Source of the DNA: Candidatus Gastranaerophilales bacterium
GTDB taxonomy: Bacteria; Cyanobacteriota; Vampirovibrionia; Gastranaerophilales; Gastranaerophilaceae
Direction: 5' to 3'
Length of the DNA: 64,000 nucleotides
NCBI GenBank assembly: GCA_910587055.1
Contig: CAJUKY010000003.1
Span: forward strand, 34,499-98,498
Under the pieces are notes generated by a model. That model ran no database searches. It worked only from the letters and a program-made list of their open reading frames with translations, and was not told the origin of the DNA. This document shows, piece by piece, positions 3,111-56,663 of this stretch (position 1 is its first letter; every line of letters begins with the position of its first letter). Position numbers and translations under genes: made by a program.

Positions 3111-4970
3111 TTAAACCTCGGTTGAAAGAGAAGGCGCAATAACAATAAATTGCCTTACAAGCTCTCTGTCCCATTGAACGCCTGCACCAAGTTTTAAAAT
3201 TTCACAGGCCTTTTCAACTCCGAGCCCTTTTCTGTAAGGCCTATCTGATACAAGAGCATGATATGCATCAGCTATTGAAACAATTCTGGCTGATAACGGG
3301 ATTTCATCGCCTTTCAGACCAAATGGATATCCTGTACCGTCATAATGCTCATGGTGGAATTTTACCATCGGAATTAAATCCCTCAATGATTCATTAGGAG
3401 CCAGCACCTTTTCCGCACCGATTACAGGGTGCTGTTTCATAATTTCCCACTCATCATCATTCAGCATACTCGGTTTTTTAAGCACATTTTCAGGAATGCC
3501 GATTTTGCCTATATCATGAAGCAGGGCGCCAAGTTTAATGCGTTCAACTTCAGCTTCGGGAAGCCTTATGGCTCTTGCAAGGGCCTCAGAATACCTTGAA
3601 ACAAAGGTAGAATGGCCTTTTGTATAAGGGTCTTTTGCATCAATGGTACTTGCTAATGAAGTTACAACATCAAGAAGGTGTTTGTTTGAAATTATCTTTT
3701 CATTATGGAATTTGCTAATCAGTTCTTCTTCAAAGTCTACACCGATTTCAGCGTGTTTTTTGGTTAAAACTTCCGCAAAACATTTGAGCGCTTCATCATC
3801 CCAGAAATTATAATCTTCACTTGTTACAACTATGCAGTTGCCTGATTCGTATGATTTGCTTTTTGAGATATACATAGCCTGCTCTGCCAGAACAAGAAGT
3901 TTTTCCTGATTTTTTGAAGCAAGAGGATATGCCGCAATACCGGCACTGACCTTAATAGGGCCGACAGCATCAACAATAACGCAGGATAGAGTATATGATA
4001 AATATTCTGCGATATATTTTGCCTCTTCAAGCGGAGTATTGGGCATTAATACCGCAATCTCGTCACCGCCGTATCTGCCTGCAAAATCAGTATTTCTGAT
4101 GCTTTGCTTAATTTTATGCGCTACGGTTTTAATGATTTCATCACCTTTAGCATGGCCTAATTCTCTGTTGATTTGGGAAATATTTGAAATATCAAAAATG
4201 CAAATTGACAGCTGCGAATTTGCCTGCTCTGCAAGGTGTATTTGTTTTGACAGTTCTTCCTGCAGGTGCTTGTGGTTTGCAAGTCCTGTTAAAGTATCGG
4301 TATCAGAATTCTTTTCAACCATTTCAAGAAGGTTGATATTTTGAGCAAAAAGCCCTATTGAATTGCCTATAAATTGATACAATTCCGAATACATATCAGC
4401 CCTAAAATCGCCGATTGCATAAACACCCAGACACTCATTTGCCGCAATTAAGGGAAATAAAAGCATGGCTGAACTGTTCAAATAAGAGGCGCTCAAAAAA
4501 GCATTATCCGGAGTTCTCTGCATTTTTTTACCCTGAATACACTTAACAATGGGGTTTTCCGTATCTGCCAGCATAATTTTGCTTGAATAGGTTGAACCAA
4601 CTTTATCCACAAGTTTTATATTTACGCATCTTGATTGTTTATTTAACAACCCTAATGCAGAACAATTTATCTGCATTCTTGTGGATAAGATATTATGAAT
4701 AGAGTAAAACAATTGTCCGAGTTCGTTTTTACTTAAAAACGCCTCATTTATATGCTTTAAAATTTCCTGATAATTAATATTCAGCTGTTTTGCATAATTT
4801 TGAGTCGAATAACCGCCGTAAAGCCGATTTGCACTTGTGCTTGTATGAGCCTGTGTTTTTGAATTAATGGGGTTAGAAAATACGGAATTGATTTTTACTT
4901 CATTCCGGTTCTCTTCTGTATTTGACCTTTTATCATTAACAGGTTTATTTTGAGACTCTTTGAAACTCAC
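3111..4970 (-). CDS. GAF - GGDEF (with RxxD I-site) - HD-GYP composite c-di-GMP turnover protein
   Basis: RNTDFAGRYGGDEIAVLM carries the I-site RNTD five residues before GGDEI. C-terminal HDIGKIGIP and HHEHYDGTGYP are the HD-GYP signatures. GTG start. Confidence 0.9.
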   Translation of the reverse strand: MSFKESQNKPVNDKRSNTEENRNEVKINSVFSNPINSKTQAHTSTSANRLYGGYSTQNYAKQLNINYQEILKHINEAFLSKNELGQLFYSIHNILSTRMQINCSALGLLNKQSRCVNIKLVDKVGSTYSSKIMLADTENPIVKCIQGKKMQRTPDNAFLSASYLNSSAMLLFPLIAANECLGVYAIGDFRADMYSELYQFIGNSIGLFAQNINLLEMVEKNSDTDTLTGLANHKHLQEELSKQIHLAEQANSQLSICIFDISNISQINRELGHAKGDEIIKTVAHKIKQSIRNTDFAGRYGGDEIAVLMPNTPLEEAKYIAEYLSYTLSCVIVDAVGPIKVSAGIAAYPLASKNQEKLLVLAEQAMYISKSKSYESGNCIVVTSEDYNFWDDEALKCFAEVLTKKHAEIGVDFEEELISKFHNEKIISNKHLLDVVTSLASTIDAKDPYTKGHSTFVSRYSEALARAIRLPEAEVERIKLGALLHDIGKIGIPENVLKKPSMLNDDEWEIMKQHPVIGAEKVLAPNESLRDLIPMVKFHHEHYDGTGYPFGLKGDEIPLSARIVSIADAYHALVSDRPYRKGLGVEKACEILKLGAGVQWDRELVRQFIVIAPSLSTEV

Positions 4971-5489: not shown

Positions 5490-7724
5490 ATGTCATATTT
5501 AATGCTGTTTAATGAATTAAAAGAAATATTAATATCTCAAGGCAGAGAGATGGAAGATATTGAAAAAATTGAGCATGCTTATCTTTTCGCATCCCGTCTG
5601 CATGAAGGACAATACCGTATATCAGAAGAACCCTATATAATCCACCCCATTGAAGTAGCTAAAATTTTAACGGAATTAAGACTCGATACAAATACAATCA
5701 TTGCAGCTTTTTTGCATGACATTTTGGAAGATACGGACACAAAGCCCGAAGAAATTGAAAATAACTTTGGCTCCGATGTTTTAAAGCTTGTAAACGGAGT
5801 GACGAAACTCGGCAAGTATCAATTTAAATCAAAAGAGGAGCGTCAGGCTGAAAACTTCCGCAGAATGTTTATTGCAATGGCGGAAGATGTCAGAATAATT
5901 TTCTTAAAGCTTGCAGACCGCCTTCACAATATGCGCACACTTAATTATATGGCGGCAAATAAGCAAAAGCGCATAGCACAGGAAACTCTTGATATTTTTG
6001 CACCGCTTGCAAACCGTCTCGGTATCGGAAAAATTAAAGCCGAGCTTGAAGATTTGTCGCTTAGATATATTAACCCTGAAAAATATTATGAAATCGCAAA
6101 GCTTGTTGCTCAAACAAAACACGACAGAGATAAAGTAGTTTCAAGTTTGATTGAAACAATTTCAAACAGCCTTAAAGATTCAGGAATTCATGCCACAATT
6201 TACGGCAGAGCAAAACACTATTACAGCATATACAATAAAATGAAACGTCAGAATGTTTCTTTTGATGAATTATACGATATTACGGCAATAAGAGTCATTG
6301 TAGATGATGTCAGAACCTGCTATAACGTCTTAGGTATAATCCACTCCCAGTTTAAACCAATCCCCGGACGTTTTAAAGATTACATAGCAATGCCGAAAGG
6401 CAATATGTACCGCTCTTTGCACACATCTGTTATAGGTTCAAAAAATAAGCCTTTTGAAATCCAGATAAGAACCAAAGAAATGCATGATGTTGCAGAATAC
6501 GGTGTTGCGGCGCACTGGAGATACAAAGAATCAGGCTCTGTCAAAGCAGAGGATAAAAATGATATTCAATTCAACTGGATGAGAAAGCTTGTTGAAATTG
6601 ATAAAGATACAACGGATGCTAAAGAATTTGTAGAAAGCGTAAAGCTTGATTTGTTTTCGGATCAAGTTTTTGCATTTACCCCCGCAGGAGATGTTGTTGA
6701 CCTTCCTTCTAATTCCACCCCCGTTGATTTTGCATACAGAATTCATACGGAAGTGGGCCACAGAACAGTAGGTGCATTAATAAACGGAAGAATTGTTCCG
6801 CTTGATACAAAACTTCAAAACGGTGATATTGTTGAAATTTTAACATCAAAACAATTTATGCCGAAAATTGACTGGCTTAATTTTGTTGTAACAAAAAGCG
6901 CCATTTCAAAAATCCGTTTATGGTTTAAAAAATACAAAAGAGAAGATAATATCGAAATCGGTAAATCCGCCCTTGAAACAAACTTGACCAAGGCTGTATT
7001 TGACGAATACTTAAAATCCGGCGAAATAGACAGATGCGCAAGAGAAATGAACTATAAAAGCGCGCCTGACTTATTTGCAGCGCTCGGATACGGTGAAACT
7101 ACAATACACAAGGTTTTAAACAAGCTTAAAAAACCCGAAAATAAACCTTTAGAAAATATTGAACAAAAAGAGCAGCCAAAAAATAAACGTAACCATAAGA
7201 AAAATGATATTATAGGGTTGGAAGGAATGCTCTGGAGCCTTGCAAAATGCTGTTCACCAATCCCCGGGGAACCCATTGTGGGGGTTGTTACCAAATCAAA
7301 AGGTGTTACTGTTCACAGGCTTGATTGTAAATGCCTGTTTGACATTATTCCTGAAAGGATGATGGATATCAAATGGGCGGATAATGTATCATCCGGCACA
7401 TATATTGCTCATTTAAGAATAGAATCACAGGACAGAGTGGGTATTTTAAAGGATATTTTAATCAAAATTGCAGATACAAACACAAATATAGCCTACGCAA
7501 ACAGTTATTTAAAAAGTAAAAAATTCGGCATTATGGATATCGGCGTTGAATTATCTGATATTGAAACATTGAAAAAAGTTATACTTAATATCCAAACAAT
7601 CCCCGATGTGCTCTCTGTGCGCAGGTTACAGCAAAAAAACGATTTAAACAGCCTGAATAAGGGTAAAAACAAGAATCAAAAAAACAGAAAACAAAACAAG
7701 CCTCAGGCAAAACAGCAGATATAA
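5490..7724 (+). CDS. rel: Bifunctional (p)ppGpp synthetase/hydrolase (RelA/SpoT homologue)
   Basis: HD hydrolase motifs (HPIEVA..FLHDILEDT). Synthetase core (RAKHYYSIYNKM, YRSLHTSV). TGS and C-terminal ACT-like regions. 744 aa. Confidence 0.95.
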   Translation: MSYLMLFNELKEILISQGREMEDIEKIEHAYLFASRLHEGQYRISEEPYIIHPIEVAKILTELRLDTNTIIAAFLHDILEDTDTKPEEIENNFGSDVLKLVNGVTKLGKYQFKSKEERQAENFRRMFIAMAEDVRIIFLKLADRLHNMRTLNYMAANKQKRIAQETLDIFAPLANRLGIGKIKAELEDLSLRYINPEKYYEIAKLVAQTKHDRDKVVSSLIETISNSLKDSGIHATIYGRAKHYYSIYNKMKRQNVSFDELYDITAIRVIVDDVRTCYNVLGIIHSQFKPIPGRFKDYIAMPKGNMYRSLHTSVIGSKNKPFEIQIRTKEMHDVAEYGVAAHWRYKESGSVKAEDKNDIQFNWMRKLVEIDKDTTDAKEFVESVKLDLFSDQVFAFTPAGDVVDLPSNSTPVDFAYRIHTEVGHRTVGALINGRIVPLDTKLQNGDIVEILTSKQFMPKIDWLNFVVTKSAISKIRLWFKKYKREDNIEIGKSALETNLTKAVFDEYLKSGEIDRCAREMNYKSAPDLFAALGYGETTIHKVLNKLKKPENKPLENIEQKEQPKNKRNHKKNDIIGLEGMLWSLAKCCSPIPGEPIVGVVTKSKGVTVHRLDCKCLFDIIPERMMDIKWADNVSSGTYIAHLRIESQDRVGILKDILIKIADTNTNIAYANSYLKSKKFGIMDIGVELSDIETLKKVILNIQTIPDVLSVRRLQQKNDLNSLNKGKNKNQKNRKQNKPQAKQQI

Positions 7725-17294: not shown

Positions 17295-17627
17295 ATGTCT
17301 AAAAATAAGGATTTAAAAACTTTATTGGGCTTGCGTATTGCAAAGTTAAGGAAAATACGCGCATTTTCGCAAGAAAAACTTGCCGAGGCAATTGATATTT
17401 CGCAAAGAAACTTGTCTAACATAGAAACAGGGGTAAATTTTGTTAAAGCAAGCACCCTTGAAAAAATTGCTGATGTTCTTGGACTTTCACTCGGGGATTT
17501 ACTTAATTTTAATGAAGATTATACCGAAAAAGAGCTGCTTGACGCCATCATTAAAAAAGTTAAGTTTATGAAAAACGATATTGATAAGCTAAGAACCGTT
17601 AATGAATTTCTAAATAAGATGTTTTAG
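17295..17627 (+). CDS. XRE-family helix-turn-helix transcriptional regulator
   Basis: LRIAKLRKIRAFSQEKLAEAIDISQRNLSNIETG is a typical Cro/C1 HTH. 110 aa. Confidence 0.85.
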   Translation: MSKNKDLKTLLGLRIAKLRKIRAFSQEKLAEAIDISQRNLSNIETGVNFVKASTLEKIADVLGLSLGDLLNFNEDYTEKELLDAIIKKVKFMKNDIDKLRTVNEFLNKMF

Positions 17628-26000: not shown

Positions 26001-26097
26001 AAATGTTAAAAATTTGAATTTTGAGCCTACACCATCAAATGAAGCTTGCAAATACTGCCCTTATACCATGATTTGCAAACTTGCAATGAAGGATTAA
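23026..26097 (+). CDS. UvrD/PcrA-type SF1 helicase fused to a C-terminal Cas4/AddB-like PD-(D/E)XK Fe-S nuclease domain
   Basis: Helicase motifs AGPGTGKT, LVDEYQDTN, VGDDDQIIYSFQGA, TYHGSKGREFEYVF and VGITRSK. Nuclease part: CPKKYYY...IYDFKTG...QLRFYKYL...CKYCPYTMIC (1+3 Cys). Confidence 0.9.
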   Translation: MAAQTASEMILPKKITPNARQQEAIDTLLGPVMLLAGPGTGKTFTLIERIKSMLNQGVKPSEILCLTFSEAASSEMKTRLVKTMGENNTGAMSVCISTYHSFCKDIIDRFPSKFELLDNIQVVDDITKQTIVKECIDKYHADKGIEFLKDKWNNRYHYVSQMISAIDLIKRERITREEYFEYFNSNPDWLPKLEELKIEYKEREQKGKLVKTFVEKIEKFENKLGKAKEFYEICELYEQGLRQHNLIDFSDMLNLVLKTLFYDDELLYEIASGFKYILVDEYQDTNSGQNELIFNIARGAKTDNVFVVGDDDQIIYSFQGARCDNLKTFLKKYPETKVICLKENNRSSQLVLDFAEDIIKNDKSRLSNDPEFKLHNIDKKLIAKNENVIKKEEKIQFSFYSNTLQENNDIVDKIENLIKKGIEPKEIAILSKRNDLLIPFAKILKAKNIPYQLNRQKSVFEIPAFIISYFYLKCLDNTYTGADKLFGLLVNEPFLIDERDYFELLRLNRTGNLDADKKRTFFDNIKENLETVFKDSKKIHDFYSTFIELKKQKSAKSLSAIVYDVILKTGILEYFSNRADEKFENLAAIKRLLQEVYSYVSLHKTAALSDFMSHLDTYLKQGIKMEIEKKPYCGNAVQLLTYHGSKGREFEYVFLPQLTARLWEKSRSPVSLDIPVQKSQFLDDKEENKKAEQLKLLFVGITRSKFGLYLSYANCDDEMNVQAMSEYLSSDMFNNPAMCDKKTFDTNLEGYMEELKRSLLYQNSSDVQNELKQRTDDVTVSASALNEYLSCPKKYYYSSILNIPVYFEEVDNLSFGSAVHFALEKMARSGKERGNYPSLDETLAFFKEKMNTLEFKDEESRQNFMQRGEDIFNENYLKLTETPLENIIASELRLETKEDGYTLKGFVDRVVKAGGKLYIYDFKTGSVKKIKPDEDYHNQLRFYKYLYEKINPGAEICDCSLLYLEKGFTYSNANLTEEDNIEIENKIKDFVLNVKNLNFEPTPSNEACKYCPYTMICKLAMKD

Positions 26098-28625
26098 TTT
26101 TTAAATTTATACATTTTTTCTTTATTAAAAAATGTATAAATTTTAATATCGCCGTCTTTTTTAAATGAAAATTTTACTGCGCCATTATCTTTTGTGGAAT
26201 AAATTTTACTGCCTGAATTTTCAAGCAGTTTTATTGTTTCAATATGCGGATGCCCGTAGTGGTTCAAACCTGTTGAAATTATTGTATATTCAGGCCTTAG
26301 ATAATTGAGCATATTTTTATCAACAACGCCTTTTGCCCCATGGTGCCCTGCTTTTAAAATTTTAATATCAGAAGGAATGTTCTTTTTTACCGAATTAAAG
26401 GCTTTTATACAGCCGTCACCCATAAAAAGAACTTTGTTTCCTTTATAGTCTGCAAGTGTAATTATGGAATTTTCATTATCATCTTCCCTGCCGGTTTTCA
26501 AGTTATCAGGAACAAGGGTTTTGATTTCAAGTTCATTTTCTTTATAAATAATTTCATTATTCGCTGCAAGGGCATATTTTATCTTATTTTTATTCATATA
26601 GCTGAAAATAGAACAGGAATTAACCGTATTGCAGGTTTTTCTTTGAACAAGCACGTTATTAACTTTAATATTTTCAAGTATATCAATTGTTCCGCCCGAA
26701 TGATCACTATCAAAATGAGTTATAATTAAATATTCAAGCTCCTTTATATTTTTATCATAAAGATATTCAAGCGTTATGCGTTTTGCACCCGAAACCCCTC
26801 TATATGGCAATTTTGCCGCATCAATCATTATATATTTATTACTTGGAGTTTTAATTAAAAAATTATCAGCATTTCCGACAGAAAAAGCGGTAATTTCAAA
26901 ATCGCAGTTGAAAAACCGCCTTCCTGCACTGTATAAAATTGAACTTGTAAAAAATATGACAAAGATAAGTAAAATAATATTGTGTTTTTTCTTTTTAAAA
27001 TTATCACGTATACATTGAATAAAGGTTAAAATAATCAAATAATATGCAGTAATTTGAAAAACCTGCCCCGAGGGCATTTTTATAACCGCATCGGGAAGTT
27101 TTGAGAAAAAATTTGAAATAAAAAGCAAGGCTGTTATTAAAGGATTTAATATAAAACTTGAAATTTTTATTATAAAATCGCCAAAAAAAGGTATCCACGC
27201 CATAACAGAACTTGAAAACCCGACAAAACTAACAACACCGATAAAGGGTAAAACCGCAATATTTGCAAAAACACCGTACGGGGTAAATGTATTAAAATAG
27301 TACATCTGCAAAGGCGCAGCCCAGATTTGTGCTATTAAAGGCACAAGAACCATTGAAAGAAGAGATACAGGTGAAAAAATAAATAAAAAGCCGAGAATAA
27401 ATTTTGAACCTGTAAAATCAGGCGGAAAATGCAAAGAAACAAGTTTATAAACCCGTTTTTTGTAAATTTTGTCGGCATTTTTCATTTTAGAACACAGAGG
27501 TTCAATACATGTTATAAGCCCGCCCGTTACAAGAAACGATAGCTGAAACCCGACATCATTTAAAAGTTTGGGATTACAAATAAGCATAATAAGAGCCGTA
27601 AAGAAAACAAGGGTAATATTATCTGCTGTTTTAAACATCAATTTGCCGGCTAAAATTATGATAAGCATTATGGAGGCCCTTAATATGGAGGGCGGAAACC
27701 CTGTCATAAAGGTATAAAAAACAATAATCCCCATTCCGGCCGCAAGTCTTGCTTTATAGGAAAAATTCAAAAATCCGCTTAAAGCCCACCATATACTAAA
27801 AATCAGCGCTACATTAAGGCCTGATGCTGCAAGAAGATGTAAAAGCCCCGAATTTATGAAAGATTGTTTGATGCTGTCAGGAGGATTTACAGCATCATCC
27901 CCGAAAACAATCCCGCCCAGAACCTCTAAATTCGGGCTTTTTATATATTGCCCGTGCTTTGCAATAATTTTATCGCGCGTATTATCAAGCCCCTGTAAAA
28001 TGCACCACCACAGTTCTTTGATTTTATTTTCAGCATTGAAAATATTAGGGTGATTTAAAACTTTAAATTCTTTATTATTTGAATAAAGAATGGCAAAAAT
28101 ATCTTTATTTTGAAGATATTTTTTATAATCAAATTCGGAAGGATTTGAGGCTTCCGCAGGTTTTCTTAAATTACCTTTAATTTCAATGATATCGCCTATT
28201 TTAACATCTTTATATCTTTCTTTATCGCTTTGGATTGAAACCAGAATTTTTGTATTTGAAGGCTTAATATCATCATTAAAAATTTGTGCTTCATATACAC
28301 CGAGGGCAAATTTTGCCGTCTTTTTTTCTTTAGCAATATCTGGTATAGAATAAACTCTGCCTTTTAAAATAACATTATTTACGGAATTTATATTCGAAAG
28401 ACCGTCAAATTCTTTATAGTGCAGCTTTGCATTAAAAAACCCAAAAATAAAAACAAAATTTAAAATAATGCAGAGCAAAGGTTTTAATTTTTTACATAAA
28501 ATGAGTAATATTAAAGCCAGTGTTATAAAGCAGGCAAAAGCCACGTGACATCCCCCGTAAAAAGCACACAAACCAAATATATAAAAAACCGTAATCAGCG
28601 CTAATGCAGAAATTTTATTTTCCAT
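26094..28625 (-). CDS. comEC: DNA internalisation competence protein ComEC/Rec2 (with metallo-beta-lactamase domain)
   Basis: 843 aa polytopic protein. C-terminal ITHFDSDHSGG and AGHHG MBL motifs. Stop overlaps the helicase stop (TTAA). Confidence 0.9.
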   Translation of the reverse strand: MENKISALALITVFYIFGLCAFYGGCHVAFACFITLALILLILCKKLKPLLCIILNFVFIFGFFNAKLHYKEFDGLSNINSVNNVILKGRVYSIPDIAKEKKTAKFALGVYEAQIFNDDIKPSNTKILVSIQSDKERYKDVKIGDIIEIKGNLRKPAEASNPSEFDYKKYLQNKDIFAILYSNNKEFKVLNHPNIFNAENKIKELWWCILQGLDNTRDKIIAKHGQYIKSPNLEVLGGIVFGDDAVNPPDSIKQSFINSGLLHLLAASGLNVALIFSIWWALSGFLNFSYKARLAAGMGIIVFYTFMTGFPPSILRASIMLIIILAGKLMFKTADNITLVFFTALIMLICNPKLLNDVGFQLSFLVTGGLITCIEPLCSKMKNADKIYKKRVYKLVSLHFPPDFTGSKFILGFLFIFSPVSLLSMVLVPLIAQIWAAPLQMYYFNTFTPYGVFANIAVLPFIGVVSFVGFSSSVMAWIPFFGDFIIKISSFILNPLITALLFISNFFSKLPDAVIKMPSGQVFQITAYYLIILTFIQCIRDNFKKKKHNIILLIFVIFFTSSILYSAGRRFFNCDFEITAFSVGNADNFLIKTPSNKYIMIDAAKLPYRGVSGAKRITLEYLYDKNIKELEYLIITHFDSDHSGGTIDILENIKVNNVLVQRKTCNTVNSCSIFSYMNKNKIKYALAANNEIIYKENELEIKTLVPDNLKTGREDDNENSIITLADYKGNKVLFMGDGCIKAFNSVKKNIPSDIKILKAGHHGAKGVVDKNMLNYLRPEYTIISTGLNHYGHPHIETIKLLENSGSKIYSTKDNGAVKFSFKKDGDIKIYTFFNKEKMYKFKN

Positions 28626-32729: not shown

Positions 32730-33350
32730 ATGCGTATTACTATGTATGATAACATAAAATCAGGAGCAAAAGCTATGCAGGATAAAAAAACAGACAAAAA
32801 AAACGAACAAAAAAGTTCAAAAAAAGTATTTGACTTTTTAGAAAAAAACAAAATTCATAAAAAAGACTTCGCGCAAATGATTGGCGTAACTCTTTCTTAT
32901 GTATACAATCTTATTGATGAGACCATTCCTTTTTCAACCAGAACAACAACTCTGGAAAGAATTGCAACGGTTATGGATATAATGCCTGAAGAATTTGATG
33001 AGTACGTGATTTCATCAGATCCTGTGCCGTATAATAAAAATCTTGAAACCATAAAAGAACACATGAAAAAAAATAAACTTTCAACGGTTGAATTTTTGAA
33101 AAAATTTGAAAGAAAGAAAAGACTTGCACTTGTTGATATCTTAAGAGGTGCAAAACCTTTATACATCGACTTTTCAGAATTTCAAAAAATCGGAGAAATT
33201 TTAAATATTAAAGATGCCGATTTATTTGAATTATGGAAAAATATATTTATTGAGCATCTGGAAGACAGCGGCTTTGACACTTCATGCAATAAAGAATTTT
33301 TAGATGCCATGTTTGCCGGTGCCAAAAAATACGCAGTATCCAAAAAATAG
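32730..33350 (+). CDS. HTH-domain protein (XRE-like), 206 aa
   Basis: KKDFAQMIGVTLSYVYNLIDE helix-turn-helix-like segment. The rest is unassigned. Confidence 0.55.
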   Translation: MRITMYDNIKSGAKAMQDKKTDKKNEQKSSKKVFDFLEKNKIHKKDFAQMIGVTLSYVYNLIDETIPFSTRTTTLERIATVMDIMPEEFDEYVISSDPVPYNKNLETIKEHMKKNKLSTVEFLKKFERKKRLALVDILRGAKPLYIDFSEFQKIGEILNIKDADLFELWKNIFIEHLEDSGFDTSCNKEFLDAMFAGAKKYAVSKK

Positions 33351-44388: not shown

Positions 44389-44787
44389 TTAGATGATTGA
44401 ATTTATGTAAAACCAGATATTCAGCATCTTTTCGCGGTCTTTTTCAATAATTTTCATTTTGCGGTAAATTTCTTTTCTGATTTTTTCATCAGATTCAACG
44501 TTCGGGAAACAAAATAAATCCGCAGGCTGAATATCAAGCGCATCAATGATTTTAGCAAAACTTTCAGATGACGGGAAATTTTGCCCGCGTTCAATTCTGC
44601 TGTATGAATTAGGGGAAATACCTATTGCTTCAGATAAATACTCCTGACTGTAACCTCTGTATTTTCTGATTTTGGCGATATTTTCGCCTACATATTTTTT
44701 AAAATCCGTACCGTTCACAGTATTTTCGCTCCGTTTTAATAGTAATTTGTATACGTTCAAAAAATAACGACTTAAAAATGTTGACAC
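44389..44787 (-). CDS. XRE-family HTH regulator, divergent from the glycine-rich gene
   Basis: IAKIRKYRGYSQEYLSEAIGISPNSYSRIERG. A GTG at 44718 with GGAG 10 nt upstream is a plausible alternative start that would clear the divergent promoter. Confidence 0.8.
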   Translation of the reverse strand: MSTFLSRYFLNVYKLLLKRSENTVNGTDFKKYVGENIAKIRKYRGYSQEYLSEAIGISPNSYSRIERGQNFPSSESFAKIIDALDIQPADLFCFPNVESDEKIRKEIYRKMKIIEKDREKMLNIWFYINSII

Positions 44788-44809
44788 TATACTTAATAAG
44801 TCGTATTAT
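44781..44809 (+). promoter_or_regulatory. Near-consensus sigma70 promoter (TTGACA-17 nt-TATTAT) for the glycine-rich gene
   Basis: Read directly: ttgaca 44781-44786 and tattat 44804-44809. About 90 nt upstream of the ATG at 44907. Confidence 0.5.
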
Positions 44810-44906
44810 TTAATTAAGTTTAAATTTTATGCATGGAAAAATCTGTCTTCTTTAAGACAATACTCCTGCAAAACGTTTTGTTTATCTTAAATAAAGGTTA
44901 CGAAAA

Positions 44907-47480
44907 ATGAAAAGTTCATCGCTTATCAGTGCACTTTATCGTGCATTATCAAATTTACACAAAAGCACGGGCGCGCAATTTGCTGCATTTTCGCTAGTTG
45001 AAATGCTCATGGCTCTCCTTGTGGCTTCGCTTTTGCTTGCAGCATTAGCCCCTGTTATGACAAGAAGACTCGGGGATAATGTTAACGTAAATGTAAATGC
45101 GGGAGGCACAAAATCGGATTATTCCCGTACTTTTTATGAAGATTTTGAATGGGCTGTTCCAAACGGCGTTAATGTAATTAATGTTACTTCAGTCGGCGGA
45201 GGCGGAGCCGGCGGGGGTGCAACGTATGGTTTTAAAGAGGTAACATCATCTGAAAGCAATTGGACTGTTCCTGCAGGTGTTACCAAATTAAGAGTGTTTA
45301 TGGTAGGTGCAGGCGGAGGCGGTGCAGGCGGCGGGCTGAACACTGATTTTGATTATGCTAATATTCCCGCAATAAATAATGCAGAATTACAGCAAACAAA
45401 TGCAGGTACATATGTGTTTACAAATATTGCAGCCATACCAAGCACATATACTGCACCCGCTTTAACGGCAAGATGCTCTGATTCAGGCATAACGCAATGG
45501 ACCATTGCATCAGACAATACAACGGTTAATCCCAATGCAAAGTTTGGCAAGTTTTTAAATAATATCACCTTAAATAAGGTTACCGCATGCGGTGCAGGAG
45601 GCGGAGGAAGCACTGCACCAGGCGGTTCAGGCGGTTATTTGGTTAATAACGCACTTAATATAACAGCCCCCGCCTCTTCCATTACGGTAAAAGTAGGTAG
45701 TCCTGGCGGCAATGGTAGATATACCGGCGCTTCAATCTCTTATGCTTTAGTTGTAGCGGGAGGTGCTGGAGGTACAGGCGGTACTGCAGGTAGTGCAGGC
45801 GCAAGAGCAGATTGCAACGGAAATTCCGCCACAGCCTGTGATGCAAGTAGCAGCGGGGGCGGGGGCGGTTCTACAGCTATCTTAAATGCAGGAACTATGG
45901 TTTTTGAAGCACCGGGCGGGGGCGGGGGCGGGGGCGGTGGTGCTATCTCCAGCTTTCCTTGCGCTGACACTAATGCATATGGTCTTTCAAATGGCGGAGG
46001 GGGTAATGGAGGAGGTTCCTTTAATCCAAATTTTGGCCGTGGCGGGGGCGGGGGTCAAGCTTGGTGTAATGGACGAGGACTTATAGCTGGCAGCGGGGGT
46101 TCAGGATATGTTGCAGGAGCAAACGGGGCTGCCGGCGGCAACCGTGCAAACGGCGGAGGCGGCGGGGGCGGTATAGGCGGTGTTGGAGGCGGCAAGGGCA
46201 CATTAAATTCAATTTTTGGAACATCAAAATGTAATGCAGGCTGCTCTGGTGCTATTAAATTATGGTACAGCGTAGCTTCCGTTGCAAACGGTTTAAAATG
46301 TCAGTATTATGCAAAATCTAACAGCGGCGGCGGAGGCGGTGCGGGCCAGATATGGATTGGCGAAATATCCGTAACACCGGGGCAAAAACTCAATTTTAAT
46401 ATAGGAATAGGAGGAGAAGGCACATCTTCCTACGGCAATAACGGATACGGAAGAAACGGCGGTGACGGGGGAAGTACATCAATTTCCGCGGGCTCTTCCG
46501 CTTTGATTTCCGTATCAGGCGGCAAAGGAGGCAAATACGAATCATCCGATAATGAAACATATATTAATAATACATACGGTATGGGCGGAGGAATAAAAAC
46601 AACAAGCGCTACTGTCGGAAACAACGTTATAAAGTATGTTAATTGGAAAGGAAGCAATTTTCATACAGGCGGAGAAAACGGCGGAAGCGCCAAATCATAT
46701 AATAATGGCGGAGGCGGAGGCGGAGGCAAAGGCGGACAGCTTTATAATCTAAACGGCATTCTTGTTAAAGGCGGTGTTGAAGGTGGAGCCCAATCAAACG
46801 GAGGTGATGCACTATCTTCAAGCTACGGCGCAGGCGGCGGAGGGGGCGGAGGCATAGTTAATGACGGCAAAAGACCGGGGCACGGCGGCAAGGGTGCTAA
46901 CGGATATATATACATTGAATGGGGAAGCACAAACGGCGGCGGCGGAGCATCCGGCCAAATAGCAAATTATAACGGTGTTTGGGTAACACCCGGAACAAAA
47001 GTGCAAATAACCGTAGGGAAAGGCGGTGAAGCACCGGCAATAAGCACTGCGGGAAATATTCAGCAAGGGTTAAAAGGAAATAACGGCGGCGACAGCTTTA
47101 TCACAACAAATGAAGGTAAAAAAGCCGTAGCTAAAGGCGGTGAAGGCGGATATGCAGGAAGCTCAAGCCATGGTAAGGGCGGAAACTATGATAATTCTGT
47201 TACTGATTCTATAAAAGGAGAGGATGGCTCTGATGATTACGGAGGAATCGGAGGAACAATAACTCCCGATATATGTCCTTTGTTTGATTCTCTTATGGGA
47301 TTAGGAGGATGTGGAGGTAATATGCCTAACGGTAATTGTAACGGAGCATATTCAAGCGGAGCAGGAAAAAATGCAGGAAAAACAGGCGGAGGCGGTGGAG
47401 GCGGAGCTATTAATAACGGTACGGCATACACGGGCGGTAAAGGTGCAAACGGTATGGTAGTGATTGAATGGAATAACTAA
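44907..47480 (+). CDS. 857-aa glycine-rich modular protein with prepilin-type (class III signal-like) N-terminus
   Basis: Basic leader, then AA/FSLVEMLMALLVASLLLAALAPV (Glu at +5, about 20 hydrophobic aa). Repeated modules: VPxGV...GGGGAGGG; GQI..VTPG.K..I.IG.GGE; G(K)GANGxxxIEW. Confidence 0.8.
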   Translation: MKSSSLISALYRALSNLHKSTGAQFAAFSLVEMLMALLVASLLLAALAPVMTRRLGDNVNVNVNAGGTKSDYSRTFYEDFEWAVPNGVNVINVTSVGGGGAGGGATYGFKEVTSSESNWTVPAGVTKLRVFMVGAGGGGAGGGLNTDFDYANIPAINNAELQQTNAGTYVFTNIAAIPSTYTAPALTARCSDSGITQWTIASDNTTVNPNAKFGKFLNNITLNKVTACGAGGGGSTAPGGSGGYLVNNALNITAPASSITVKVGSPGGNGRYTGASISYALVVAGGAGGTGGTAGSAGARADCNGNSATACDASSSGGGGGSTAILNAGTMVFEAPGGGGGGGGGAISSFPCADTNAYGLSNGGGGNGGGSFNPNFGRGGGGGQAWCNGRGLIAGSGGSGYVAGANGAAGGNRANGGGGGGGIGGVGGGKGTLNSIFGTSKCNAGCSGAIKLWYSVASVANGLKCQYYAKSNSGGGGGAGQIWIGEISVTPGQKLNFNIGIGGEGTSSYGNNGYGRNGGDGGSTSISAGSSALISVSGGKGGKYESSDNETYINNTYGMGGGIKTTSATVGNNVIKYVNWKGSNFHTGGENGGSAKSYNNGGGGGGGKGGQLYNLNGILVKGGVEGGAQSNGGDALSSSYGAGGGGGGGIVNDGKRPGHGGKGANGYIYIEWGSTNGGGGASGQIANYNGVWVTPGTKVQITVGKGGEAPAISTAGNIQQGLKGNNGGDSFITTNEGKKAVAKGGEGGYAGSSSHGKGGNYDNSVTDSIKGEDGSDDYGGIGGTITPDICPLFDSLMGLGGCGGNMPNGNCNGAYSSGAGKNAGKTGGGGGGGAINNGTAYTGGKGANGMVVIEWNN

Positions 47481-47504
47481 ATTTTTACGATAAAACAACT
47501 TTTT

Positions 47505-47541
47505 GGGTGCTGTTACCATGTAACCTCAGCACCCTTTTTTT
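47505..47541 (+). terminator. Intrinsic terminator of the glycine-rich gene
   Basis: gggtgctg (47505-47512) pairs with cagcaccc (47527-47534), followed by T7. Confidence 0.85.
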
Positions 47542-47842: not shown

Positions 47843-48910
47843 CTACGGCAGGCGGCGAATTAAGACAGAACCGTTTGTAGATATTTCAAAGCCTTCATCC
47901 GCGGTTTTTGAAAGCAAGCCTATTTCGCCAGTTTCAAGGTTTATACCCCAGCTTCCAAGGAAAAGGTGTTCTTTATTTTTCTTATCATAGGTATACGCAA
48001 CGCACACTACAATATTTTCATCTTTCGCATAAAATCCAAGAGGCTTTATATCCCATCTATAGCGGTTTAAATTTAAAAGTTCCTCATTAAACCAGTATTG
48101 TTTTATTGTTTCATTTAATTCATCATATTTAACGGCACGGGAGGCGGAATAATAAGCGCCGTCCAAATCGCCTTCCGCATCCTGCAGGTCATCCTCAAAG
48201 GATTCATCCAGAAAATAAACCCAGACATTCGTTTCATAGATACCATTATAGGCAGAACCTCTCTGTTCTTTAACAAGCACCTTTTTATTATCTTTTGACC
48301 AGTCAACTACGGCAAACGCGGAAAAAAGTGCTGTTTTCATATTTTCGTTTGTGCTTGAAATCAAGGGTTTTTTCTTTGCGCCTGCAAACACATTAGCATC
48401 AATTACGCGCTGCTTTTTGCCCTTCATTGTATCAAGCGGATAGATAAAAAATGCGGAAGTTGTCTGCCTTGATGAAGGATAATAATAGCATTCGGTGTAT
48501 GCCATAAATTTATAATCCGGGCTTATTACCCCCTGCGAACGGGCGCTTTTTTCAGCCTGCAATTTTTCAAGATTAAATTCGCGGCTTCCCGGGGCATTAT
48601 TATATTTTTCAAAAAATACGGGCCATTCAAGCTTTTTTACAAGGTTTTTATTTTCTTCTTCCTTATACGGCTCTGCTATTCTGTGTTCCATTTTTATATC
48701 CGTGGCGCGCTCCATCCATTCCTGAACTGTCTGCACCATGGGTTCGGCTTCTTTTTGCTGTTTTTTTTCAAGTTTCCTTTGTTTATATTCTTCAACAAAA
48801 TCACTCCATGGAAATTCCATTGCAGGGGTGCAGTTTTGAATAATAAGTACTAAAAACAGGGCTGCAAAAAGCCTTTCGGGTTTAATACCGTTAATTTTAA
48901 AACAGGGCAT
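47843..48910 (-). CDS. Exported or membrane-anchored hypothetical protein, last gene of the two-component operon
   Basis: N-terminal hydrophobic segment LFAALFLVLIIQNC. No recognised domain. Its start shares a base with the response-regulator stop. Confidence 0.65.
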   Translation of the reverse strand: MPCFKINGIKPERLFAALFLVLIIQNCTPAMEFPWSDFVEEYKQRKLEKKQQKEAEPMVQTVQEWMERATDIKMEHRIAEPYKEEENKNLVKKLEWPVFFEKYNNAPGSREFNLEKLQAEKSARSQGVISPDYKFMAYTECYYYPSSRQTTSAFFIYPLDTMKGKKQRVIDANVFAGAKKKPLISSTNENMKTALFSAFAVVDWSKDNKKVLVKEQRGSAYNGIYETNVWVYFLDESFEDDLQDAEGDLDGAYYSASRAVKYDELNETIKQYWFNEELLNLNRYRWDIKPLGFYAKDENIVVCVAYTYDKKNKEHLFLGSWGINLETGEIGLLSKTADEGFEISTNGSVLIRRLP

Positions 48911-49590
48911 TAAACAAGCCCTTCTTTTATGGCTTTTACCACAGCTTTTGTCCTATCTTCGAGATAAAGTTTCTGCAAAATATTATGAACATGGGCTTTT
49001 GTTGTTGAAATAGAAATTACAAGTCTTTCGGAGATTTCCTGATTTGTAAGCCCGTCAGAAAGCAGGCTTAAGACTTCAAGTTCTTTTCGTGTAAGCCCGT
49101 ATGAATTATTTTCGGATTTTTCTTTTTTTTCTATCATGGCGCTATTTTGAATATTACCAAGAACAACCCTTGCTATCACAGGGTCAAGCCAGCCGGCTTT
49201 TTGATTAACCGATTTTATTGCACCCGTAAGGGTTTCAAGGTTTGAGCCCTTCATAATATACCCGTCAGCTCCTGCACTCAATGCGGCAAAAACATCTTCC
49301 TTATCCTCGCGTGATGTAAGCATCAAAATCGAAGCATCCGAACCGTTTTCTTTAATTTTTTTTGTGGCTTCAATACCGTCAATTTTAGGCAGGCCTATAT
49401 CCATCAATATAACATCGGGATTTAAACGTGAGGCTAAATCTATCGCTTGAAGGCCGTCTTCCGCCTGTCCCACAAGGTCAAATTCAGGATTATTTTTAAT
49501 ATATAAAGCTGTGCCCATCCTTGCCATAATATGGTCTTCAACAAGGAGGATTTTTATTGTTTTTTGAGGCGCAGTTTCAACATTTATCAT
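48910..49590 (-). CDS. Response regulator, NarL/LuxR (REC + HTH_LuxR) family
   Basis: ILLVEDH...ILMDIGLPKIDG receiver. C-terminal LTRKELEVLSLLSDGLTNQEISERLVISISTTKAHV. Confidence 0.95.
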   Translation of the reverse strand: MINVETAPQKTIKILLVEDHIMARMGTALYIKNNPEFDLVGQAEDGLQAIDLASRLNPDVILMDIGLPKIDGIEATKKIKENGSDASILMLTSREDKEDVFAALSAGADGYIMKGSNLETLTGAIKSVNQKAGWLDPVIARVVLGNIQNSAMIEKKEKSENNSYGLTRKELEVLSLLSDGLTNQEISERLVISISTTKAHVHNILQKLYLEDRTKAVVKAIKEGLV

Positions 49591-51203
49591 ATTTTCACCG
49601 TATCAACAATTGCATTTTTTAGTATAAAACTGAATGTACAGCCTTTATCGGGTTCTCCCGATGCAAAAATATCTTTTGCCGTGCTTTTATTTTGAAGATT
49701 GGCACCGTTTGCCTGCGCATTGTGCGCTTCAATAATCTGCCTTGAAAGATACAACCCGAGACCCGTTGAGGCAGAGCGCTTTTTGCTTGTGCCTTGAGAA
49801 AATCTGTTAAACAACTTTTCAATATCTTCTTTACTTAAACCTTCGCCAAAGTCAACAATATCAACTCTTGCATCTTTTTTATCATAAGAAACATTGATTT
49901 TTATAATGCCGTCTTTTTTACTGTGCTTAATTGCATTGCCGAGCAGATTGGAAATAACCCTTCTTATTTCATTTTTATCGGCATTAATAAGGGTTTCGCC
50001 ATTACTGCCGTTATTTGTATCAGGAAAACTAAATTCAAACTTTAAATTATCTTCATATAAAAGAGGGGATAATTTAGAAGTACAGTCTTTAATCAGCTCT
50101 TCAAGGCTGAAGTGCGTTTTGCACAAAAACAGCTTGCCTGATTCATAGCGGTATACCTCCAAAAGCGCATTAACAAGCCCCAGCATATCTTCCGAGCTTT
50201 TTTTCATAACGGATAAAAGCTCTTTCAATTCATTATTAATATCCCCGAGCTCGCCATTCAGTGCAAAATCAAGAGCATTAATTGAAGCAAGAAGCGGCGT
50301 TCTAAGGTCGTGCGTTAACGTTGCAATAAAATCATCTCTAAGACGTTCATTTTCCTTCTGGAAAGTAATATCGCGGATGAGCGCTATTGTAAAATCTTCC
50401 CCGTTAAGGCTTACTTTTGCAAGATTGATTTCAACGGGAATTTTTTTATTTTCACTATAGTCTATTACGCTGAAATCCCTCAAAGTTTTTTCATCTTTTT
50501 TAATTTTTTGATTCTTTTCATTAATTATAAGTTCAAAGAAATTTTTTCCTGAAAGATTATCTTTTTCATTTGTACAAAAGAGCTTTTTTGCCTGATTGTT
50601 AACCTGAACAATCCTGTTATTTAAATCAAATAAAATAAGCGCATCGGATAAATTTTCAATTATTGTATTTAATTTAATATTTGAAACGTTTAAATCTTTT
50701 GTGCGCTCTTCAACCTTTTCTTCCAAAGATTTTGAATATTCTTCAAGTTTTTTATTTGCAATTTCAAGTTTTTCAATTTTATCTTTAAGCTGTTCTTTAA
50801 GCCTTGTACGCTCAATTCCGTTTTTAATATTTAAAATAATATCATCGTTGCCCCAGGGTTTTTCAATATATTTAAAAATGCCGAGCTCATTAATTGCCCT
50901 TATGGCATTTTCTTTATCGGCATACCCTGTTAAAAGAATCTGCGTGGTATCGGGGTGAATTTTCTTTGCCTTTGATAAAAATTCAATACCGTTCATTTTA
51001 GGCATAATAAAATCGGAAATAATAAGGTCGCAAGGGTTATTTTCAATGAATTTAAGCGCCTCTTCGGGATTGTTAAAGATATCTACGTTTGAAAAGCCCT
51101 CAATCTTTAAAAGAGTTTTGAGGGTTTTAATTACCATATCTTCATCGTCAACGATTACTATCTTACCGGTGATTAACATAATTACAGAATAATTTATTTT
51201 CAA
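49587..51203 (-). CDS. Histidine kinase with N-terminal receiver, coiled coil, PAS, HisKA and HATPase_c domains
   Basis: REC (IVIVDDEDM..DLIISDFIMPKMNG). H-box FIATLTHDLRTPL. N box (LLGNAIKHS). G boxes (DFGEGL, GLGLYLS). 4-nt overlap with the RR gene. Confidence 0.9.
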   Translation of the reverse strand: MKINYSVIMLITGKIVIVDDEDMVIKTLKTLLKIEGFSNVDIFNNPEEALKFIENNPCDLIISDFIMPKMNGIEFLSKAKKIHPDTTQILLTGYADKENAIRAINELGIFKYIEKPWGNDDIILNIKNGIERTRLKEQLKDKIEKLEIANKKLEEYSKSLEEKVEERTKDLNVSNIKLNTIIENLSDALILFDLNNRIVQVNNQAKKLFCTNEKDNLSGKNFFELIINEKNQKIKKDEKTLRDFSVIDYSENKKIPVEINLAKVSLNGEDFTIALIRDITFQKENERLRDDFIATLTHDLRTPLLASINALDFALNGELGDINNELKELLSVMKKSSEDMLGLVNALLEVYRYESGKLFLCKTHFSLEELIKDCTSKLSPLLYEDNLKFEFSFPDTNNGSNGETLINADKNEIRRVISNLLGNAIKHSKKDGIIKINVSYDKKDARVDIVDFGEGLSKEDIEKLFNRFSQGTSKKRSASTGLGLYLSRQIIEAHNAQANGANLQNKSTAKDIFASGEPDKGCTFSFILKNAIVDTVKI

Positions 51204-55578: not shown

Positions 55579-55845
55579 TTAATCAAAATCAAATAAATCT
55601 TTAGGATGAACACCCAGACGGTCAGCTATAATCTTGATTTTTGACAAGGTTATATCAGTTTTCCCTATTTCAACCATACTGATAGTTGAACGCGAAATAT
55701 TTTTCAGATTTGAAAAATCATCTTGCACTAAACCCTTTTCCTTTCTTATTTTTTTTAAATGTTTTGCAAATTTTTGTAAATATTCCTTGTCCATTTTTAA
55801 ATTATCAACTATACTGGCATTATTAACAACCAATATCATTGGCAT
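55579..55845 (-). CDS. Small XRE-family HTH regulator
   Basis: LKKIRKEKGLVQDDFSNLKNISRSTISMVEIGK. The likely true start is the internal Met at 55794 (71 aa). Confidence 0.75.
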   Translation of the reverse strand: MPMILVVNNASIVDNLKMDKEYLQKFAKHLKKIRKEKGLVQDDFSNLKNISRSTISMVEIGKTDITLSKIKIIADRLGVHPKDLFDFD

Positions 55846-55866
55846 TTTATCAAAGGAGATTTTAAA

Positions 55867-56046
55867 ATGAACGATAAAGAAAAACTTGAATTTGTTAAAG
55901 AAGAAATAACTAAATTAAACTATTTAAATTCCATCCTTACGGATGCAATATCATACCATCAGGAAACATCCGATATAAACCCGCAATTCCTCTATCTTAA
56001 CGATATCATGAAAGACAAGTTCGCCAATATTTTAAGCACTTTATAA
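55867..56046 (+). CDS. 59-aa hypothetical protein (below the ORF-track cutoff)
   Basis: AAGGAG SD 8 nt upstream of the ATG at 55867. MNDKEKLEFVKEEITKLNYLNSILTDAISYHQETSDINPQFLYLNDIMKDKFANILSTL. Stop at 56044-56046. Confidence 0.4.
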   Translation: MNDKEKLEFVKEEITKLNYLNSILTDAISYHQETSDINPQFLYLNDIMKDKFANILSTL

Positions 56047-56048
56047 TA

Positions 56049-56077
56049 TTGACAACCGTTAGTTTACAGTTTATAAT
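56049..56077 (+). promoter_or_regulatory. Perfect consensus sigma70 promoter (TTGACA-17 nt-TATAAT) for higBA
   Basis: Read directly: ttgaca 56049-56054 and tataat 56072-56077. The higB ATG is only 8 nt past the -10 box. Confidence 0.65.
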
Positions 56078-56085
56078 ATAGATGT

Positions 56086-56364
56086 ATGATAAAATCATTC
56101 AAACATAAAGGCTTGGAAAATTTCTTTAAAACCGGCTCCACAAAAGGCATCCAAGCCATACATCAATATAAAATCAGAGAAATTTTGTCAATTTTAAACA
56201 AAATGAAAGATTTTGCACCTTTAACATTACCATCATATAGACTACATAAATTAAAAGGTGATATGAAAGACATCTGGTCAGTTACAGTACAGGCAAATTG
56301 GCGCATAACTTTTGATTTTAAGGATGAAGATGTTTATATAGTTGATTATAAAGACTATCACTAA
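56086..56364 (+). CDS. higB: HigB-type toxin (plasmid maintenance system killer, RelE/ParE superfamily)
   Basis: MIKSFKHKGLENFF...LHKLKGDMKDIWSVTVQANWRITFDF..VDYKDYH is a very typical family sequence. Confidence 0.9.
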   Translation: MIKSFKHKGLENFFKTGSTKGIQAIHQYKIREILSILNKMKDFAPLTLPSYRLHKLKGDMKDIWSVTVQANWRITFDFKDEDVYIVDYKDYH

Positions 56365-56378
56365 GAAAGGAATAACTT

Positions 56379-56663
56379 ATGGAAATGTACAATCCATGCC
56401 ATCCGGGCGAGATATTAAAAAATACCTATTTGCCTGATTATAATTTGTCCGTTTCAGCTTTTGCCATAAAAATCGGTGTATCAAGAACAACTGCATCAGA
56501 ACTTGTAAACTGCAAAAATCGCATTACGGCTGAAATGGCGGTTAAACTTGAAAAAGCTTTCAAAGTACCTGCGCAATTCTGGCTTGATATGCAGCAGCAA
56601 TACGATTTATGGCATGCCAGACAGCGCGTAAACCTTGATAACGTGGAAGTTATAGCATTATAA
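56379..56663 (+). CDS. higA: HigA-type antitoxin (HTH, XRE family)
   Basis: HPGEILKNTYLPDYNLSVSAFAIKIGVSRTTASELVNCKNRITAEMAVKLEKAF..FWLDMQQQYDL. Confidence 0.9.
   Translation: MEMYNPCHPGEILKNTYLPDYNLSVSAFAIKIGVSRTTASELVNCKNRITAEMAVKLEKAFKVPAQFWLDMQQQYDLWHARQRVNLDNVEVIAL

Follow-up and report, generated by a model that had tools for sequence, protein, structure and literature searches.

We report that a 64-kb stretch of DNA (hereafter the window) from a mouse-gut Gastranaerophilales (Melainabacteria) bacterium carries, at 44907-47480 on the + strand, an open reading frame (ORF) for an 857-amino-acid (aa) glycine-rich protein that, as we hold with modest confidence, probably acts as a modular-pilin-like surface adhesin controlled by an XRE-type regulator. 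The protein would combine a class III signal, an alpha1N helix for docking to a type IV filament machine and three phage-type receptor-binding domains with variable loops. An initial annotation of this DNA had described the gene on its own. Every element reported there could be confirmed, from the ORF and its divergent XRE gene to the promoter, terminator and glycine modules; the gene is not a single oddity and belongs to a lineage-specific multigene family with at least 14-15 members per genome. The members of this family are most likely surface-exposed ligand-binding proteins, that is, adhesins or receptor-recognition proteins.

Glycine makes up 25.8% of the 857-aa protein, which contains 13 runs of four to nine glycines (G4-G9) and 12 cysteines. 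Its N-terminal part is divided as follows (pLDDT, predicted local distance difference test).

44907..44987, + strand: leader peptide, residues 1-27 (MKSSSLISALYRALSNLHKSTGAQFAA), ending in Ala; length and sequence vary across the family.
44988..45068, + strand: pilin alpha1N-like head, residues 28-54 (FSLVEMLMALLVASLLLAALAPVMTRR), with Phe+1, Glu+5 and Pro+22; N_methyl/TIGR02532-type match, below threshold.
45069..45137, + strand: low-confidence linker, residues 55-77; pLDDT <50 at residues 47-69; low conservation.

The head motif, AA↓FSLVEMLMALLVASLLLAALAPVMTRR (the arrow marks the predicted cleavage site), spans residues 26-54, and the hydrophobic stretch that follows the site, FSLVEMLMALLVASLLLAALAPVMT, consists of 21 residues including Phe+1, Glu+5 and Pro+22. 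Pro22 is a classic alpha1N position in type IVa pilins such as the PAK pilin of P. aeruginosa, and Ser14 of the head occupies the position where these pilins usually have Gly14. In class III signals, leaders differ in length, their last residue is 'invariably' Gly or Ala, and they precede a stretch of 20-25 hydrophobic residues in which Glu5 is frequent (PMC10191384). An N_methyl match was found in all 14 diverse family members tested (E<=0.1; best E=1.4e-5), which upholds the class III layout recognised in the initial annotation. The Ala at position -1, which had been singled out there as an exception, is a normal alternative to Gly (PMC10191384) and occurs in 65 of the 79 copies of the head, the other 14 having Gly. 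Relatives with the same head pass the N_methyl cutoff (21.4 bits in L064), and some cluster representatives are precomputed as PF07963. The N-terminus is thus predicted to be a genuine class III (prepilin-type) signal.

Across the family, the head is almost invariant from position -1 onwards, (A/G)↓FSLVEMLMALLVASLL(L/M)AALAPVMT(K/R)(K/R), and Phe+1, Glu+5 and Pro+22 are unchanged in all 79 copies. The 79 coding sequences of the head are all different from one another at the nucleotide level, with an entropy of 1.41 bits at the third codon position and 0.12 bits at the second. Because the 25 residues are near-identical at the amino acid level while their synonymous sites are saturated, the conservation of the head is due to residue-by-residue purifying selection on the protein. 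Gene conversion, recent duplication and a recombination site acting at the DNA level were considered as other sources of this conservation and rejected on the same two grounds, the differing coding sequences and the saturation of synonymous sites. Such conservation is far stricter than a plain membrane anchor needs.

The leader shows a different kind of variation in some paralogues. In L027 (9755-10088), L033 (9734-10004) and L014 (1572-1595), a leader of ~100 aa lies between the conserved ATG and the AFSLVEML head. Long paralogue leaders hold in-frame repeat elements, such as GTCATTGCGAGGAGCGAAGCGACG, that translate to 'RHCEERSDVAIQ'-type peptides, and long repeat-derived leaders are likewise found in many database homologues.

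The rest of the protein consists of three glycine-rich domains.

45138..46286, + strand: glycine-rich domain 1, residues 78-460; PF21722, 25.0 bits; pLDDT mostly >90.
46287..46931, + strand: glycine-rich domain 2, residues 461-675; PF21722, E=2e-7, profile positions 33-225; pLDDT mostly 86-97.
46932..47477, + strand: glycine-rich domain 3, residues 676-857; PF21722, E=1.8e-8; PHROG 863 (tail category), E=3.9e-10.

The 857-aa protein matches PF21722 (Gly_rich_2) with E=2.6e-16 and 60.8 bits against a cutoff of 24.3. Residues 78-460, 461-675 and 676-857 score 25.0, 31.7 and 35.1 bits, respectively, when taken separately, all above the gathering score, and the same family was matched in 14 of 14 relatives tested. 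On these profile matches, we regard the membership of the body in PF21722 as established. Domain 1 holds two 'W.VP.GV..(I/L).V...GGGGAGGG' strand units together with large variable insertions; the two short units occupy residues 80-104 and 119-143. The three long units close with GAIKLWYS (448-455), GKGANGYIYIEW (661-672) and GKGANGMVVIEW (844-855). All of the motifs quoted in the initial annotation are present, except that the block '(A/S)GQI...VTPG.K...G.GGE', which had been assigned to three long units, is strict in two of them (474-505 and 677-709) and divergent in the first.

An AlphaFold2 (AF2) model built from a 78-sequence alignment has a mean pLDDT of 87.2 and a predicted template modelling score (pTM) of 0.59. 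It contains beta-sandwich strands and three stretches to which DSSP assigns almost no secondary structure (363-445, 578-665 and 743-849), where the mean pLDDT of 10-residue blocks is ~65-97, the lowest values being near 791-800. The polyglycine stretch of domain 2 (578-665) has block means of 86-97 and almost no DSSP secondary structure. Ordered but unassigned stretches of this kind are the pattern expected in such a model for a polyglycine lattice. Foldseek matches in the Protein Data Bank (PDB) included gp24, the fibre protein of cyanophage Pam3 (7YPX/7YFW, probability 1.0), the tail tip of mycobacteriophage Bxb1 and ~20 entries of the ALK/LTK TG domain. Among predicted viral structures, there were 73 matches at E<=1e-3 (best 3.9e-13), most of them phage or giant-virus proteins annotated as tail fibre, minor tail or 'glycine-rich domain-containing'. 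No match to PF12810, the ALK/LTK-type Gly_rich family, was detected in the 857-aa protein even at E<=1. A model of domain 3 alone (pLDDT 88.8; best PDB match the Bxb1 tail tip 9d93_Qb, probability 0.90, query-normalised TM score, TMq, 0.40) did not sharpen the fold assignment, probably since the first strands come from the preceding domain.

The profile search and structure prediction that the initial annotation had proposed thus returned a known glycine-rich family and ordered domains (mean pLDDT 87.2). The beta-solenoid-like glycine repeat that it had suggested is to be replaced by three tandem PF21722 domains, whose nearest folds are TNF-like plus polyglycine; neither a beta-helix nor a solenoid was among the PDB matches, where TNF-like/polyglycine-rich domains ranked at the top. 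In comparisons between homologues, the glycine motifs and core strands are conserved, and insertions and deletions are concentrated at residues 281-320, 381-460 and 741-800.

The protein is found in identical form in several mouse-gut metagenome-assembled genomes, such as GCA_948712025.1, and all of its relatives from species-representative genomes bear one of three labels, Candidatus Gastranaerophilales, 'Vampirovibrio sp.' or Melainabacteria. A word-indexed search yielded 272 homologues, nearly all of which are unnamed proteins of 850-1,100 aa with PF21722 and which keep conserved non-glycine residues and cysteines. An exhaustive phmmer search of 1.84 billion representatives gave 209 matches at E<=1e-3, of which 34 were at E<=1e-30, and the family is therefore narrow. 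Counts in the fetched loci, which represent lower bounds, gave at least 15 copies in MGBC162268 and at least 14 in MGBC159851. The genes are scattered around the chromosome, some of them in tandem arrays; in L007, three head-bearing genes (836, 8822 and 12783) stand in tandem on the same strand with no XRE neighbour.

Selection on the gene is purifying overall (nonsynonymous divergence, dN, 0.116; synonymous divergence, dS, 1.14, between the 857-aa gene and L005), and dN/dS is ~0.07-0.13 in the three glycine-rich domains in the same comparison. Pervasive positive selection is not seen at the level of whole domains in these values. The PF21722 match (E=2.6e-16), the 272 homologues and the dN/dS of ~0.10 against the closest homologue indicate that the gene is not a chance ORF. 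The GC content of the region is 41-45%, compared with ~33% in the surroundings, because of its GGN codons.

The glycine-rich gene is accompanied by a regulator gene and a set of expression signals.

44389..44718, - strand: XRE-family regulator (Cro/CI-type helix-turn-helix, HTH), 109-aa form; HTH_3 match; positional orthologues 77-84% identical.
44767..44804, no strand assigned: candidate XRE operator, read from sequence; 0-1 mismatches in L025, L027 and L033.
44781..44809, + strand: sigma-70-type promoter of the glycine-rich gene; -35 TTGACA at 44781-44786, 17-nt spacer, -10 TATTAT at 44804-44809.
44875..44901, + strand: conserved block GTTTTGTTTATCTTAAATAAAGGTTAC of 27 nt in the 5' untranslated region (5'UTR); near-identical in four positional orthologues and at a fixed distance to the ATG.
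47505..47541, + strand: intrinsic terminator; hairpin GGGUGCUGUUAC...CAGCACCC followed by U7.

The divergent ORF (44389-44787, - strand) encodes an XRE/Cro-CI HTH protein of 109-132 aa, with a match to Pfam HTH_3 (PF01381; E=3.5e-13, 49.8 bits against a cutoff of 23) and a C-terminal extension of ~40 residues. The open frame reaches upstream to a GTG at 44787, and the 109-aa form, corresponding to 44389-44718, was chosen by gene callers in four assemblies. To follow this pairing through the family, a hidden Markov model (HMM) made from XRE homologues was run on 78 loci of other genomes, in which 74 head ORFs had enough upstream sequence (1.5 kb or more) to be tested. A divergent XRE-like ORF was present within 1.5 kb upstream in 49 of the 74, at a median distance of 245 nt, and these 49 are among the 71 XRE-like ORFs contained in 1.21 Mb of loci. 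The adjacency, whose conservation in relatives had been put forward in the initial annotation as a test, is thus kept at two-thirds of paralogous loci. Within one genome, XRE paralogues are only ~30% identical (maximum 49%), which fits a model in which each locus has its own regulator.

Three other species share the gene order of the window, namely XerC/D, hyp206, TsaE, TsaB, XRE, head protein, hyp355, LuxR-type response regulator, hybrid kinase and phosphoglucomutase. The flanking genes are 47-91% identical across these species, most of them 63-91%, TsaB being the most diverged (47-58%). The XRE genes are 77-84% identical, and the head proteins only 36-50%. In L079, which has the closest flanks (89-94% aa identity), the slot is occupied by a different head protein of 770 aa (207-2516) that is 25% identical and contains a sub-threshold Lcl_C-like region and one Gly_rich_2 domain. 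Conversely, an 84%-identical homologue sits at another locus (L005 10055-12532) beside an XRE protein only 34% identical. This pattern would imply that cassettes have been replaced or relocated between loci. Sequence comparison therefore depicts regulators as stable by locus (77-84%) and passengers as diverging or swapping (25-50%).

The promoter, TTGACA-17-TATTAT, fits the consensus at 11 of 12 positions, as the initial annotation had noted in calling it near-consensus. Because a promoter scan gave sites no more numerous than in shuffled sequence, its support comes from conservation: it is kept in the positional orthologues L025, L027 and L033. The spacer contains a palindrome, ACTTA-A-TAAGT (ACTTAATAAGT), at 44791-44801, which is enclosed by an outer inverted repeat, ACGACTTA (44767-44774) and TAAGTCGT (44797-44804). 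We propose the palindrome as a candidate operator to which the XRE protein may bind. The promoter, the spacer palindrome and the 27-nt 5'UTR block are common to the four positional orthologues. No promoter or operator common to all paralogues was found, the strict -35/-10 pattern being present in only 11 of 48 paired loci, and therefore the operator proposal draws solely on the four positional orthologues.

Nine bases 5' of the ATG, there is a Shine-Dalgarno-like AAAGG (44893-44897). No Rfam family, and hence no known RNA element or riboswitch, matches the 98-nt 5'UTR. A perfect 6-bp inverted repeat in the 5'UTR (44844-44859, TGTCTT-cttt-AAGACA) looks like a local insertion, because it is absent in three positional orthologues. 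A phase-variation switch based on an invertible promoter received no support: no inverted repeats flank the promoter, and the nearby XerC/D-like integrase is a syntenic housekeeping gene. Downstream, the terminator hairpin (47505-47534) has a folding energy of -15.1 kcal/mol and z=-4.0, with none of 200 shuffled sequences folding as well, which bears out the earlier description of a strong terminator.

Taken together, these features suggest the following mechanism. Transcription would start from the sigma-70 promoter and be controlled by the divergent cognate XRE protein, which probably binds the spacer palindrome and may act as a repressor. The protein would be synthesised with a class III (prepilin-type) signal, whose variable basic leader is expected to stay in the cytoplasm until a prepilin peptidase cuts after Ala27. 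The invariant alpha1N-like head (Phe1, Glu5, Pro22) would anchor the protein in the inner membrane and may then allow it to join a type IV filament, either a pilus or a pseudopilus, where it would probably sit at the tip or close to it. The passenger, three tandem domains of the probable TNF-like/polyglycine-rich type found at the tips of phage tail fibres, would present variable, indel-rich loops on a conserved glycine scaffold, and we infer that these loops contact the ligand.

Several observations weigh against this model of a filament-borne, XRE-controlled adhesin. The head of the 857-aa protein scores 14.5 bits with PF07963 (N_methyl; cutoff 21.2) and 11.9 bits with TIGR02532 (cutoff 16.3), neither cutoff being reached. 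In the AF2 model, helix is predicted only at residues 30-46, after which come a low-confidence linker up to residue 69 and the glycine-rich domains; the globular module (alpha1C plus beta-sheet) of the 'lollipop' pilin fold is missing after the head, and no pilin-domain HMM of Pfam or TIGR matches the protein past residue 54. Because the predicted helix ends at around residue 46 and is followed by a disordered linker and no pilin globular module, polymerisation of the protein into a filament appears uncertain. The arrangement of the domains in the model is likewise uncertain because of the pTM of 0.59. The PDB fold matches are weak (best E=2.4e-3, TM 0.34-0.40), and on account of these modest statistics the detailed fold equivalence to TNF-like plus polyglycine receptor-binding domains is only probable. 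Approximately a third of the head ORFs have no XRE neighbour, and XRE genes are common in the source genome, with at least four others inside the window. Some of the ORFs that lack an XRE neighbour are explained by tandem arrays.

The remaining points against the model concern the filament machinery. No pilus-assembly or secretion domains of Pfam were detected among the annotated genes of the 64-kb window, several ORFs of which have no Pfam match; within this scope, the statement in the initial annotation that pilus assembly genes are lacking there still stands. A motif search of 1.36 Mb of related loci revealed no prepilin peptidase or pilus genes other than one operon in L064, and the prepilin peptidase motif occurred in none of the fetched loci. 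In favour of the model, L064 (125-4850 and 8605-12892), from a related genome, encodes a secretin, a PilB-like ATPase (T2SSE, with an MshEN domain) and a PilC-like platform protein (T2SSF), and these machinery genes lie ~5 kb upstream of an XRE and head-protein pair. The head protein of that pair (1,033 aa) passes the N_methyl threshold and has no Gly_rich_2 match. In addition, pilin-sized ORFs (~190-250 aa) with canonical G↓FTLAE heads and Pro22 are present in L005 (3675-4457, - strand), L024 (12417-13049) and L062 (18063-18833), two of which exceed the N_methyl gathering threshold. These putative pilins could be the filament subunits that the glycine-rich proteins join. A Gastranaerophilus single-cell genome has been reported to encode pilA, pilB, pilC, pilT and pilD (PMC5877343).

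The same evidence bears on another explanation, in which the head serves solely to anchor the protein in a membrane or as a tag for sorting. Whether or not it is cleaved, the protein would then be tethered to the inner membrane and play a role in the periplasm or envelope, for example in a bindosome-like manner, with no filament involved. This would account for the absence of a pilin globular module behind the head and of pilus genes among the annotated genes of the window, and there is a precedent in the class III signals on non-pilin sugar-binding proteins of Sulfolobus, the bindosome (PMC3047682). Yet all ~25 head residues, including Glu+5 and Pro+22, are conserved at saturated synonymous divergence, and such strictness suggests that the head makes specific contacts, either with other subunits or with a machine for processing or assembly. 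Moreover, even the bindosome needs a pilus-like assembly system. We consider an anchor without a filament the main rival to the filament model and the less likely of the two.

That the gene is left over from a prophage or tailocin tail fibre, with no cellular role of its own, is highly improbable. The domains do match phage tail fibre and minor tail proteins, but the gene is flanked by housekeeping genes conserved in four species (tsaE, tsaB, those of a two-component system and phosphoglucomutase) with no phage genes among them, each genome has at least 14-15 copies, every copy bears a pilin-type head that phage fibres lack, and dN/dS is ~0.10. We give practically no credence to a low-complexity artefact ORF or a coincidental XRE adjacency, since the GGN-rich sequence, the promoter scan no richer than shuffled sequence and the frequency of XRE genes in the source genome are outweighed by 272 homologues with conserved non-glycine residues and cysteines, a confident AF2 model, purifying selection and XRE pairing at 49 of 74 paralogous loci. 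On the grounds of synteny, copy number, the head and selection, both of these explanations are effectively excluded.

Other genes of the window deserve mention. Further XRE-type ORFs lie at 17295-17627 and 32730-33350, and 55579-56663 holds a HigB-like toxin paired with an HTH antitoxin, plus an extra XRE gene. A protein with GGDEF and HD-GYP domains (3111-4970, - strand), implicated in cyclic di-GMP turnover, adjoins a RelA/SpoT homologue (5490-7724, + strand); pili and adhesins are often under cyclic di-GMP control. A ComEC-type competence channel gene (26094-28625, - strand; DUF4131 and Competence domains) is consistent with a capacity for DNA uptake, a process that usually relies on a type IV filament. 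The products of the convergent downstream operon (47843-51203, - strand) are a 355-aa protein with no Pfam match, a response regulator of the LuxR/GerE type and a hybrid PAS histidine kinase. Of four related loci, three (L025, L033 and L079) keep this operon in synteny with the glycine-rich slot; L027 stops earlier, at a contig edge.

Gastranaerophilales are uncultured and widespread gut relatives of cyanobacteria, for which this family is an obvious candidate surface-recognition apparatus. It takes up an estimated 1.5-2% of a small genome, assuming 14-15 genes of ~2.7 kb in a genome of ~2 Mb. If the proposed mechanism holds, the family would extend the idea of the modular pilin to proteins that keep only the alpha1N helix. 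It would also represent a cellular use of a polyglycine-rich receptor-binding fold studied so far in phage tail fibres and ALK/LTK. One regulator per adhesin, with stable regulators and fast-changing passengers, constitutes a testable model of variable surface display, and mouse-gut metatranscriptomes exist. A bolder version, which we regard as doubtful, is that gut Melainabacteria maintain a repertoire of a dozen or more receptor-binding 'warheads' on alpha1N stubs, each with a locus-specific XRE switch, so that the binding specificity displayed on a type IV filament is varied without DNA rearrangement, as a regulator-based form of surface variation, and that the passenger cassettes are mobile between loci and possibly between bacteria and phages. 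On that version, a bare pilin helix of 25 residues would suffice to bring ~800 residues of cargo to the filament.

No published description of the family was found in the searchable literature, which was queried for PF21722/Gly_rich_2 and for Melainabacteria or Vampirovibrio together with prepilin or pseudopilin and glycine-rich. The homologue and literature searches likewise brought up no characterised protein with this combination of features, in agreement with the initial annotation. Its term 'undescribed system' was an overstatement, because proteins with a functional module grafted onto a pilin signal are already known as 'modular pilins' (PMC8179133).

Modular pilins comprise >1,200 proteins with 264 architectures (Raynaud et al. 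2021, PMC8179133) and are predicted to be located at filament tips (PMC8179133). Examples such as PilB (vWA) and PilC (lectin) of Streptococcus sanguinis (PMC8179133) resemble the proteins described here in that an N-terminal class III signal is joined to a bulky grafted functional (adhesive) module. Of the features that define a modular pilin, that is, an IPR012902 signal, a pilin module and an extra domain, the signal and the extra domains are present here and the pilin module is absent. Unlike modular pilins, the Gastranaerophilales proteins have no pilin globular module between alpha1N and the passenger in the AF2 model, their passenger consists of three PF21722 domains, and they are encoded by at least 14-15 scattered genes per genome, most with their own XRE gene and outside a pilus operon.

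Phage fibre domains (Pam3 gp24, 7YPX/7YFW; Salmonella phage S16 gp38; Bxb1 tail tip) share PF21722 with these proteins, at Foldseek probabilities of 0.9-1.0, as well as GGGGxGG-type motifs with conserved stems and variable loops and, probably, an ordered lattice composed of neither helix nor sheet. Pam3 gp24 recognises the host receptor through hypervariable distal loops on conserved GGGGxGG stems, and its fold has been related to gp38 of phage S16 and the ligand-binding domain of ALK (PMC9608196); the polyglycine-rich domains of Bxb1 sit on the central fibre (PMC13252515). The proteins described here differ in their cellular context, in the pilin-type head that replaces the baseplate- or fibre-attachment helix and in their three tandem domains, and no tail-fibre chaperone gene stands alongside the glycine-rich gene. 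A housekeeping neighbourhood that is syntenic in four species and a pilin-type N-terminus also set the gene apart from phage tail-fibre genes. The TG domain of ALK/LTK (7MZY, 7NX1, 7LRZ), a ligand-binding fold, was matched recurrently by fold and weakly by profile over ~240 residues, but the E-values are not significant (fold 0.03-0.5, sequence 2.7-4.9), PF12810 is unmatched, and ALK and LTK are eukaryotic receptor kinases.

The archaeal bindosome of Sulfolobus is similar in that a prepilin-type signal delivers and organises large binding proteins with no pilin fold (PMC3047682). It differs in belonging to another domain of life and in its passengers, and no dedicated Bas-like assembly genes were identified beside the glycine-rich genes. 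The general design of modular pilins is thus already known, as is the PF21722 domain in phage fibres and ALK/LTK. What appears to be new is the pairing of this signal with this domain, the head reduced to alpha1N, the lineage-specific expansion to a dozen or more genes and the near one-to-one pairing with XRE regulators accompanied by turnover of the passengers.

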